Below are positions 27,212 to 27,477 of a DNA stretch of 33,295 nt, piece by piece. Numbering within the stretch: position 1 is the stretch's first letter; the number at the start of each line of letters is the position of its first letter. The position numbers and the translations under genes are program-made. The notes under the pieces are model-generated. The model had not been told where the DNA came from. It made no database searches and saw nothing but the letters and a program-made list of their open reading frames with translations. The stretch is from an uncultured bacterium (GTDB lineage Bacteria; Chlamydiota; Chlamydiia; Chlamydiales; SM23-39): positions 1 through 33,295 of the forward strand of contig CAZEZK010000003.1 of the NCBI GenBank assembly GCA_964516935.1. The letters run 5' to 3'.

Positions 27212-27309
27212 TATACCCGTTCCAGTTCAAAGGCACCCAAGAGGATTAATCCAACCCCGAGAGCTTTTAATTCAATCCTCTTAGGTGCCTTTGAGCTGGA
27301 AGGGGTATA
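27212..27309. repeat. MITE-like palindromic element, short form (~94 bp between TA flanks)
   Basis: Left TIR is TACCCGTTCCAGTTCAAAGGCACCCAAGAGGATTAA and right TIR is TTCAATCCTCTTAGGTGCCTTTGAGCTGGAAGGGGTA, with 3 mismatches. TA at 27212-13 and 27308-09. Confidence 0.85.
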
Positions 27310-27477
27310 TACTCCTTCCAGTTCAAAGGCACCCAAGAGGATTAATTCAAAGCCTCGGGGTTGGATTACCGCTAATGGGGGTAGTATTGAGTTTAATACA
27401 ACCCCCATTAGCGGTAATTCAACCGCGAGAGCTTTCAATTCAATCCTTTTGGGTGCCTTTGAGCTGGAAGGAGTATA
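27308..27477. repeat. MITE-like palindromic element, long form (~166 bp between TA flanks), a near-perfect nested palindrome
   Basis: Same TIRs (27310-27345 / 27440-27475). Subterminal blocks AAAGCCTCGGGGTTGG / CAACCGCGAGAGCTTT. Perfect 18-bp inner stem ATTACCGCTAATGGGGGT / ACCCCCATTAGCGGTAAT. TA at 27308-09 and 27476-77. Confidence 0.88.

Follow-up and report, generated by a model that had tools for sequence, protein, structure and literature searches.

A TA-flanked palindromic element pair in an uncultured chlamydial genome: probable MITEs related to IS630-family insertion sequences

Layout of the locus

The stretch of DNA analysed here (the window) comprises 33,295 nt of contig CAZEZK010000003.1 from an uncultured bacterium of the Chlamydiota. 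At positions 27212–27477 it carries two abutting palindromic elements, E1 and E2, which are the subject of this report. The pair lies 335 bp downstream of a tRNA-Leu(UAA) gene (26795–26879), which is itself preceded by gapA and then a GrgA-family/CT_504-like gene. The elements measure 94 and 166 bp, below the ~400 bp expected of a miniature inverted-repeat transposable element (MITE), and carry no transposase gene; the only open reading frames (ORFs) within them are read-through frames without a family match. The features of the pair, with TIR denoting terminal inverted repeat, are as follows.

27212–27213, no strand: TA flanking E1 on the left, a target-site copy (direct sequence reading; full copies flanked likewise in eight of eight cases)
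27214–27307, plus strand: E1, internally deleted MITE of 94 bp with both TIRs and the right subterminal block, without the inner stem
27308–27309, no strand: TA common to E1 and E2 (direct sequence reading)
27310–27475, plus strand: E2, full-length MITE of 166 bp, variant A (inverted arms, fold and alignment of eight copies)
27476–27477, no strand: TA flanking E2 on the right (direct sequence reading)

The termini are TACCCG...GGGGTA in E1 and TACTCC...GGAGTA in E2. E2 is built from TIRs of ~36 bp, complementary subterminal blocks and an inner stem with a perfect 18-bp run around a loop of 4–6 nt. A repeat finder returned inverted-repeat arms of 37–51 nt (84–92% complementary) across both elements, including repeat I3 within E1 (37-nt arms, 92% complementary), and also detected direct repeats between E1 and E2. 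The 30-nt TIR core TTCCAGTTCAAAGGCACCCAAGAGGATTAA has five matches in the window at three or fewer mismatches, compared with none in 100 shuffles. The TA/E1/TA/E2/TA order, the long-TIR palindromes and the perfect 18-bp inner stem of E2, all put forward in an initial annotation made from the sequence of the window, were reproduced by these readings. The hairpin as a whole, which that annotation had described as perfect for transcribed copies, is instead near-perfect, with a few bulges and G·U pairs.

E1 corresponds to E2 minus 72 internal base pairs, inner stem included. Residues 1–36 of the two elements are identical at 34 of 36 positions, and residues 37–94 of E1 match residues 109–166 of E2 at 52 of 58. 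Both deletion breakpoints fall within direct repeats of the form TAAT[T/C]CAA, which lie at the inner stem's base. The earlier description of E1 as an internally deleted derivative can be refined to a loss of 72 bp between 8-nt repeats. The sequence of E1 recurs at the end of a second contig (L085). The abutment of two units across one TA (GTA-TA-TAC) also recurs, in L039, where a full copy adjoins a partial copy, and twice in L092. A single TA between E1 and E2 is the signature of one element having inserted into the flanking TA of the other.

Copies elsewhere

Eight full-length copies were found at eight unrelated sites, drawn from at least four data sources.

E2 in the window: one copy
L090, L091 and L092, contigs from ENA ERZ27284375/8: one copy each
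L088 and L089, metagenome contigs from JGI 3300036766: one copy and two copies, respectively
L039, chromosome CP058704.1 of Parachlamydiaceae bacterium SSA5: one copy

The copies occur in both orientations and at unrelated loci, and the family is thus not confined to the locus in the window. In the alignment of the eight full copies (A1) the mean column identity is 92%. Two of the eight are 165 bp long, among them the diverged copy in L039, which keeps the TIR and the subterminal blocks and has an inner stem that is different yet palindromic.

Several routes were taken to these copies. Genome contigs (596 Gb) were scanned with the 18-nt pattern TTCCAGYTCAAAGGCACC, which is too short for a collection of that size; the scan gave 84 loci, none of which matched a longer 25-nt TIR pattern, and L039 was the only one to hold a family member. 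A 28-nt degenerate TIR pattern gave a single match in metagenome contigs (L087, a JGI contig with a half copy that ends at the palindrome centre) and no match in viral contigs, and blastn with E2 gave no match in a plasmid collection. Further copies were reached through protein databases queried with the translated open frames of the element. Fifteen database 'proteins' (P0001–P0015) are translated element copies, and the contigs behind them yielded the full copies in L090, L091, L092, L088 and L089 (two).

The family also shows variation. Shorter deletion forms are represented by E1 and by P0010, which is without the inner stem; P0014 and P0015 are divergent variants (48–49% peptide identity), and P0007 is a VanX-like protein with an element-derived N-terminus. 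Looking up P0007 gave no record, and looking up P0015 gave no DNA. The 'hypothetical proteins' P0009–P0015 are annotation artefacts, and the family is broader than the copies examined. Contigs also break inside copies: L085 at approximately window position 27303, L099 at window position 27384 and L087 at the palindrome centre. Contig ends of this kind lend further support to the presence of multiple copies per genome, as judged from the assembled sequences.

TA flanks and insertions within genes

In all eight full copies and in E1, a TA dinucleotide stands on both sides directly outside TAC...GTA. Five of the eight full copies also have GTA or CTA before the left TA. Three copies are intragenic (in L088, L089 and L090), and for these an empty-site test was made at the protein level by deleting the element together with one TA. 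In L088 the deletion gives a single intact ORF of 428 amino acids that encodes an rve-type transposase. In L089 it gives an ISAs1-type transposase in which the DDE_Tnp_1_assoc domain is continuous (profile positions 2–85 of 88, 66.9 bits); before deletion the domain appears as two fragments broken at profile positions 56/59, the better of which scores 36.7 bits. In L090 the product is a protein of 68 amino acids of the DUF2892/YgaP-like_TM type (profile positions 2–64 of 66, 47.1 bits). The initial annotation had called for empty sites as a check of TA duplication; what can be reported is that eight of eight full copies are flanked TA/TA and that three ORFs are restored in this protein-level test.

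The insertions in L088 and L089 break the host gene, while that in L090 extends it. There the called protein P0001 runs in frame across the copy, the element and one TA together adding 168 bp (166 + 2), or 56 codons, and the insertion resembles those of the RPE elements of Rickettsia. Both E1 and E2 can be traversed without a stop codon in three of the six frames, and the lengths of element plus TA (168 for E2 and 96 for E1) are multiples of three. Divisibility of element plus TA by three was considered as a general rule and rejected, given the two full copies of 165 bp.

As a separate observation, P0001 (L090 976–1350, ERZ27284375, the same sample as the window) has the MITE insert placed between predicted membrane segments.

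A candidate mobilising IS630-family element

Contig L092 (ENA ERZ27284378) carries at 437–1560 an insertion sequence (IS) of 1124 bp with TA on both flanks. It encodes a protein of 343 amino acids with HTH_29, HTH_33 and DDE_3 domains, which scores 212.8 bits against the NCBIfam model transpos_IS630 (cut-off 100). The two IS ends read TAGTGCTTCCACCTGAAAGGCACCTA and TAGCAGTGCCACCTGAAAGGCACCC, the latter given as reverse complement. The IS sits between a solo MITE end on the left and a complete variant-A MITE on the right, with a single TA at each junction.

The full copies fall into variants A and B. Variant B, represented by the MITE in L088 and L089, has a TIR beginning TACCGCTTCCACCTGAAAGGCACCTA..., and its terminus is identical over 22 consecutive nucleotides to the IS terminus in L092, L093 and L095–L098 (blastn). 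The related IS in L095–L098 is 1137 bp long and occupies different sites, flanked TA/TA throughout. Of the 18 core positions, 3 distinguish variant A from variant B, as do the 3 nt that follow the terminal TA; within each variant both arms carry the same changes. Both variants are found on contig L089. The variant-A core of the window, TTCCAGTTCAAAGGCACC, is identical to the core of the L092 IS, TTCCACCTGAAAGGCACC, at 15 of 18 positions. A TIR shared with an autonomous IS is thus complete for the family through variant B and partial for variant A of the window.

Relatives of the L092 transposase are numerous (5557 at E ≤ 1e-20), and one of them is named as Rhabdochlamydiaceae. The best match among annotated plasmids is an IS630 element on a plasmid of Candidatus Rhabdochlamydia oedothoracis (62% amino-acid identity). 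This element shares the architecture of the ends (TA-TAGTGGTTCCGATTCAA... and TA-TACTAGTGCCGATTCAAA...) and carries TTCAA there, as variant A does. Because of the TIR identity and this shared end architecture, the MITE family is best placed with a chlamydial clade of IS630 elements. The Rhabdochlamydia element (L100, NZ_CP075588.1 6768–8596) was also seen to adjoin an IS30-family transposase gene. The placements suggest that a clade of IS630 elements extends across the chlamydiae and tends to be located next to or within other IS elements.

Hairpin structure and covariation

Folded as single-stranded DNA, the 266-nt region reaches −109.2 kcal/mol, compared with −28.5 ± 3.9 kcal/mol for shuffled sequences (z = −20.9). 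E2 folded as RNA forms one hairpin of 77 pairs (−130.9 kcal/mol, z = −22). Across the eight copies 97.4% of the cells are paired and 18 of the 77 pairs are changed on both sides, a result reached by none of 500 shuffles; sliding the partners lowers the pairing to 33–50%. The A/B differences within the TIR, where both ends must fit the same transposase, account for many of the double changes. The remainder fall in the inner stem, with L039 as their main source. Covariation of the arms fits a constraint on the hairpin (as DNA or RNA), an origin by inverted duplication and snap-back repair alike, and the data cannot separate these.

At the gathering score, Rfam finds only the tRNA-Leu in the window and no family in the elements; because of this, the covariation is not taken as evidence for an RNA gene, and the alternative raised in the initial annotation, a conserved structured RNA, finds no known Rfam family behind it. 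Matches by E-value within the element, on both strands, involve eukaryotic miRNA-precursor models and fall far short of the gathering scores; they were set aside as responses to a generic hairpin. In a promoter scan neither the interiors nor the ends of the elements gave a promoter-like site; the sole sigma-70-like site (27486–27515) lies outside them. No T-tract was found after the hairpin, and a role as an intrinsic terminator is not supported.

Further family pieces and genomic setting

Three more pieces in the window resemble the family.

1–54, plus strand: right third of a further copy, cut by the window start (blastn, 96.3% over 54 nt to E2 113–166)
30359–30370, plus strand: weak left end TATACTCCTTCC, consisting of TA and the first 10 nt of the left TIR (exact 12-mer match to 27308–27319)
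31397–31419, plus strand: solo right end GCCTTTGAACTGGAAGGGGTA followed by TA (blastn and sequence reading; the end itself is 31397–31417)

The right end that had been noted near 31392–31419, with its trailing TA, was recovered at 31397–31417. Solo right ends GCCTTTGAACTGGAAGGGGTA of 21–22 nt have the same inner breakpoint at window 31397–31417, L091 392–413 and L092 414–434. A truncation point shared at three unrelated loci is not expected from random decay; abortive or one-ended transposition, recurrent deletion and a separate mini-element are all possibilities for its origin. The 12-nt left end proposed at 30359–30370 is indeed an exact 12-mer, although it includes the TA, so that only 10 nt belong to the TIR; the match then decays, the next 15 nt beyond 30370 fitting the TIR at only ~7 of 15 positions (hand comparison). 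It is possibly a weak, degenerate left end, and its membership of the family is uncertain. Together with the solo right end at 31397–31419 it would bracket 1.06 kb, about the size of an IS. The only ORF of the segment 30359–31419 is an orphan of 260 amino acids (30482–31264, minus strand) with no similarity to the IS630 transposase, and the segment could be a coincidence or the remnant of a larger TIR-bounded unit.

A strong sigma-70-like promoter, TTGACA-18-TAAAAT with a match at 11 of 12 positions, follows E2 at a distance of 11 nt (27486–27515). The MITE pair is thus directly upstream of the −35 box, and the promoter precedes an orphan ORF that starts at 27536 or 27548. Between the tRNA-Leu and position 31420 extends a low-GC block of orphan genes (26880–31420), with a GC content of 0.36–0.40 over ~27000–29200 compared with 0.50–0.59 in the flanking housekeeping genes; the housekeeping-gene GC of the host is ~50%. 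The ORFs of the block (27548–27901 plus, 27885–29039 minus, 29335–30312 plus and 30482–31264 minus) have no Pfam or NCBIfam match above threshold. The block is bounded by the tRNA-Leu and the MITEs on one side and by the solo MITE end on the other, and it may therefore be a small acquired island.

GrgA and CT_504 are chlamydia-specific families, and their presence upstream of the pair places the host in the Chlamydiota. The gene at 26077–26757, after gapA, matches the GrgA-family model over profile positions 1–94 of 281 only, with 105 bits (cut-off 350), and also the Pfam CT_504-like family; it seems to encode a GrgA homologue that has diverged or been shortened. Proteins identical to those of the window were found only on short ENA metagenome contigs (ERZ27284375 and ERZ27284376), one of which, L086, ends near the 3' end of the tRNA-Leu.

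Discussion

The dispersal of the copies, their TA flanks, the restoration of reading frames and the TIR identity with an IS630-family IS support the initial reading of the pair as TA-duplicating MITEs. E1 and E2 are very probably both copies of one non-autonomous DNA transposon, which either descends from an IS630/Tc1-mariner IS of environmental chlamydiae or parasitises one. The most likely candidate for the mobilising enzyme, on sequence grounds, is the IS630-family transposase encoded next to copies elsewhere.

Members of the IS630/Tc1-mariner family integrate at TA and duplicate it. An IS630-family DDE transposase, supplied in trans, would bind the TIRs over roughly 25–36 bp, excise the element and integrate it at a TA dinucleotide, leaving TA duplicated on both sides. 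Catalysis by that transposase and its target preference are inferred from the established biochemistry of IS630/Tc1-mariner elements. ISY100, a member of the Tc1/mariner/IS630 family, has a transposase whose N-terminal domain with two helix-turn-helix (HTH) motifs binds the TIRs (PMC2170065). An inserted end together with its TA (...GTA-TA) resembles the sites used elsewhere, five of eight of which have GTA or CTA before the left TA, so that new insertions would favour the TA flanking an existing copy; the TA-E1-TA-E2-TA layout could arise because such a TA is a favoured target for the next copy. E1 would have formed from a full-length copy by the 72-bp deletion between the 8-nt direct repeats that bracket the inner hairpin, the type of event that would be expected from replication slippage across a hairpin.

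Several observations weigh against this interpretation. The copy at window 1–54, listed as 1–55 in the initial annotation and indeed a family member (96.3% to E2), is followed by TG and not TA. No filled/empty pair of DNA alleles was found for any locus, that of the window included. Every contig with an identical GapA or ORF384 (L085, L086 and L099) stops within the MITEs or short of them. Among 5.8 billion proteins ORF384 finds only two homologues, both distant (43% and 34% identity), and it therefore offers no syntenic comparison at this locus. TA duplication is accordingly argued from the symmetry of the flanks plus the restoration of frames and domains, and is supported at that level. The window itself is without a transposase remnant by tblastn with the IS630 transposase, as had been noted before. 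IS and MITE are alike in the TIR only; nothing in the IS corresponds to the palindromic interior of the MITE. The initial annotation had proposed looking for a transposase gene enclosed by the TIR of the element; an IS630-family IS with 22 nt identical to variant B was found, and none of the five IS relatives examined has the exact window-type core TTCCAGTTCAAAGGCACC. Whether the L092 IS could mobilise variant A is uncertain, as the cores differ at 3 of 18 positions.

This last point leaves room for a tentative alternative, on balance unlikely, in which the elements are TA-duplicating MITEs moved by a different, unseen IS630/Tc1-mariner transposase with a variant-A core and the L092-type IS serves only variant B. 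Variants A and B each carry the same changes in both arms, as expected if each follows its own transposase, and related chlamydial IS630 elements show several versions of the TIR (L094, and the Rhabdochlamydia IS with its TTCAA like variant A). However, a variant-A MITE directly adjoins the variant-B-type IS on L092, the two variants share contig L089, so both are present in genomes that carry this IS, and a cognate variant-A IS is not among the five relatives examined. That the elements are palindromes of the REP/BIME type handled by a RAYT (IS200/IS605-type) enzyme, or products of local tandem duplication, would fit the palindromic sequence and the abutment of two units in the window, but the probability is negligible: REPs are 20–40 bp long with a GTAG or CGTC tag (PMC3733652), whereas the present elements are 94–166 bp long, begin with TAC, are flanked on either side by TA and have ends that match an IS630 terminus, and local duplication is ruled out by the copies at eight unrelated loci.

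Two other explanations dispense with a transposase. The extreme stability of the hairpin, the covariation of its arms also in the inner stem, outside the TIR presumed to bind transposase (the L039 stem differs yet is palindromic), and the small RNAs (sRNAs) known to derive from MITEs in Coxiella (PMC5896051) could be accounted for if the element were primarily a structured RNA or hairpin with a function of its own, such as a terminator, a regulatory sRNA or a target of RNase III, conserved for that role and repeated through recruitment and not mobility. We regard this as very unlikely, because the elements match no Rfam family at the gathering score and only miRNA-precursor models below it, copies disrupt transposase genes in both orientations at unrelated loci, there is no T-tract after the hairpin, and a palindrome would covary equally under a DNA-level constraint, through two ends that fit one transposase or through snap-back hairpin repair. 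A selfish palindrome of the RPE kind, spread independently of a transposase and tolerated in genes through its open frames, with an incidental or secondary likeness to IS630, is similarly improbable. Its attractions are the three open frames of six across both elements, the lengths of 168 and 96, the complete copy read in frame inside the DUF2892 gene of L090 (P0001) and the precedent of the Rickettsia RPEs, which are palindromic, 105–146 bp long and fused in frame into genes (PMC2229807). A 22-nt exact identity precisely at the terminus of a TA-flanked IS630-family IS is, however, very unlikely to be incidental; the constant TA flanks (eight of eight) fit IS630 chemistry, the two 165-bp copies depart from the multiple of three, and two of the three intragenic insertions (L088 and L089) break the gene rather than extend it.

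Selection on the hairpin itself, for a function at the level of the host or of the element in chlamydiae, would be compatible with arms that evolve in concert over 166 bp, including an inner stem that lies beyond the part shared with the IS and that in L039 is completely different yet palindromic; we consider it unlikely, if less remote than the two explanations above. The hairpin could in that case act as RNA (an sRNA, a substrate of RNase III or a module for mRNA stability), as a cruciform or single-stranded DNA intermediate of transposition, as a peptide module read in frame in the manner of the RPEs, or as a sink in which competing IS elements are inactivated.

If the MITE interpretation holds, the elements and the L092-type IS make a clear MITE and IS630 pair in environmental chlamydiae. 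The kind of element is well understood, and the bacterial group is one for which no earlier report was found: searches of the literature for MITEs or IS630-derived repeats in Parachlamydia, Protochlamydia and Neochlamydia returned none, although the family may be described elsewhere, for example in ISfinder. The initial description of the family as apparently undescribed is consistent with these full-text searches, which cannot prove it. General understanding of MITEs is unchanged by the finding. Its practical weight lies in the assembly and annotation of uncultured chlamydiae, where the element fragments short-read assemblies (several contigs end inside copies) and produces spurious 'hypothetical proteins' (P0001–P0015); masking it would improve binning and annotation. 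Because it interrupts other IS elements and can lengthen a membrane protein by 56 codons, the element would also be actively changing the genome of an obligate intracellular lineage.

Comparison with known systems

In the L092 transposase the HTH_29 and HTH_33 domains precede DDE_3, and the IS that encodes it is flanked TA/TA; the transposase of ISY100 likewise has two HTH motifs (PMC2170065). In contrast to autonomous IS630 elements, the element in the window is non-coding and has only the terminal 22–27 nt in common with the IS.

The internal motif of the 155-bp form of the Correia elements of Neisseria is an IHF-binding site, and Correia ends create promoters; the promoter scan found no counterpart of such end promoters here. 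The likeness to the Correia/NEMIS elements lies in TIRs of ~24–26 bp or longer, TA termini with TA duplication and long hairpin transcripts (PMC2229807), and in the existence of a short and a long form set apart by an internal segment, with lengths of 107 and 155 bp for Neisseria (PMC2229807) and of 94 and 166 bp here. The 155-bp form carries the DNA motif listed in the review table (PMC2229807), the comparison with it here being one of architecture only. No cognate IS is named for the Correia elements in the review (PMC2229807), whereas a candidate IS630 element has been identified for the chlamydial family.

The RPEs are likewise palindromic elements in the range of 100–170 bp, occur in obligate intracellular bacteria and can be read through in frame in protein genes (PMC2229807). 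They differ in that their target-site duplication is entered as '?' in the review table and no transposase is named for them (PMC2229807), whereas the chlamydial family has a constant TA and a matching IS630 element. In-frame insertion is moreover represented here by one case (L090), and the two other intragenic insertions break the gene. Coxiella QMITEs can yield ORF overlaps as well as sRNAs (PMC5896051).

The closest published analogue is RUP of Streptococcus pneumoniae with IS630-Spn1. RUP was assigned to IS630-Spn1 by the similarity of its TIRs and its TA target, and it is markedly prone to insertion into other IS elements, whose transposase genes it inactivates (PMC2229807). Compared by description and not by sequence, RUP is 107 bp long with a perfect 9-bp TIR in the review table and has a Gram-positive host (PMC2229807), whereas the chlamydial element is 166 bp long (94 bp in the deleted form), is palindromic over nearly its whole length, has TIRs of ~36 bp and belongs to the Chlamydiota. 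Both are small and non-coding, with TIRs like those of a resident IS630-family IS, a TA target and a stable stem-loop (PMC2229807). Like RUP, the chlamydial family is found within the transposase genes of other elements, here of the rve and ISAs1 types, and it abuts an IS630 element.

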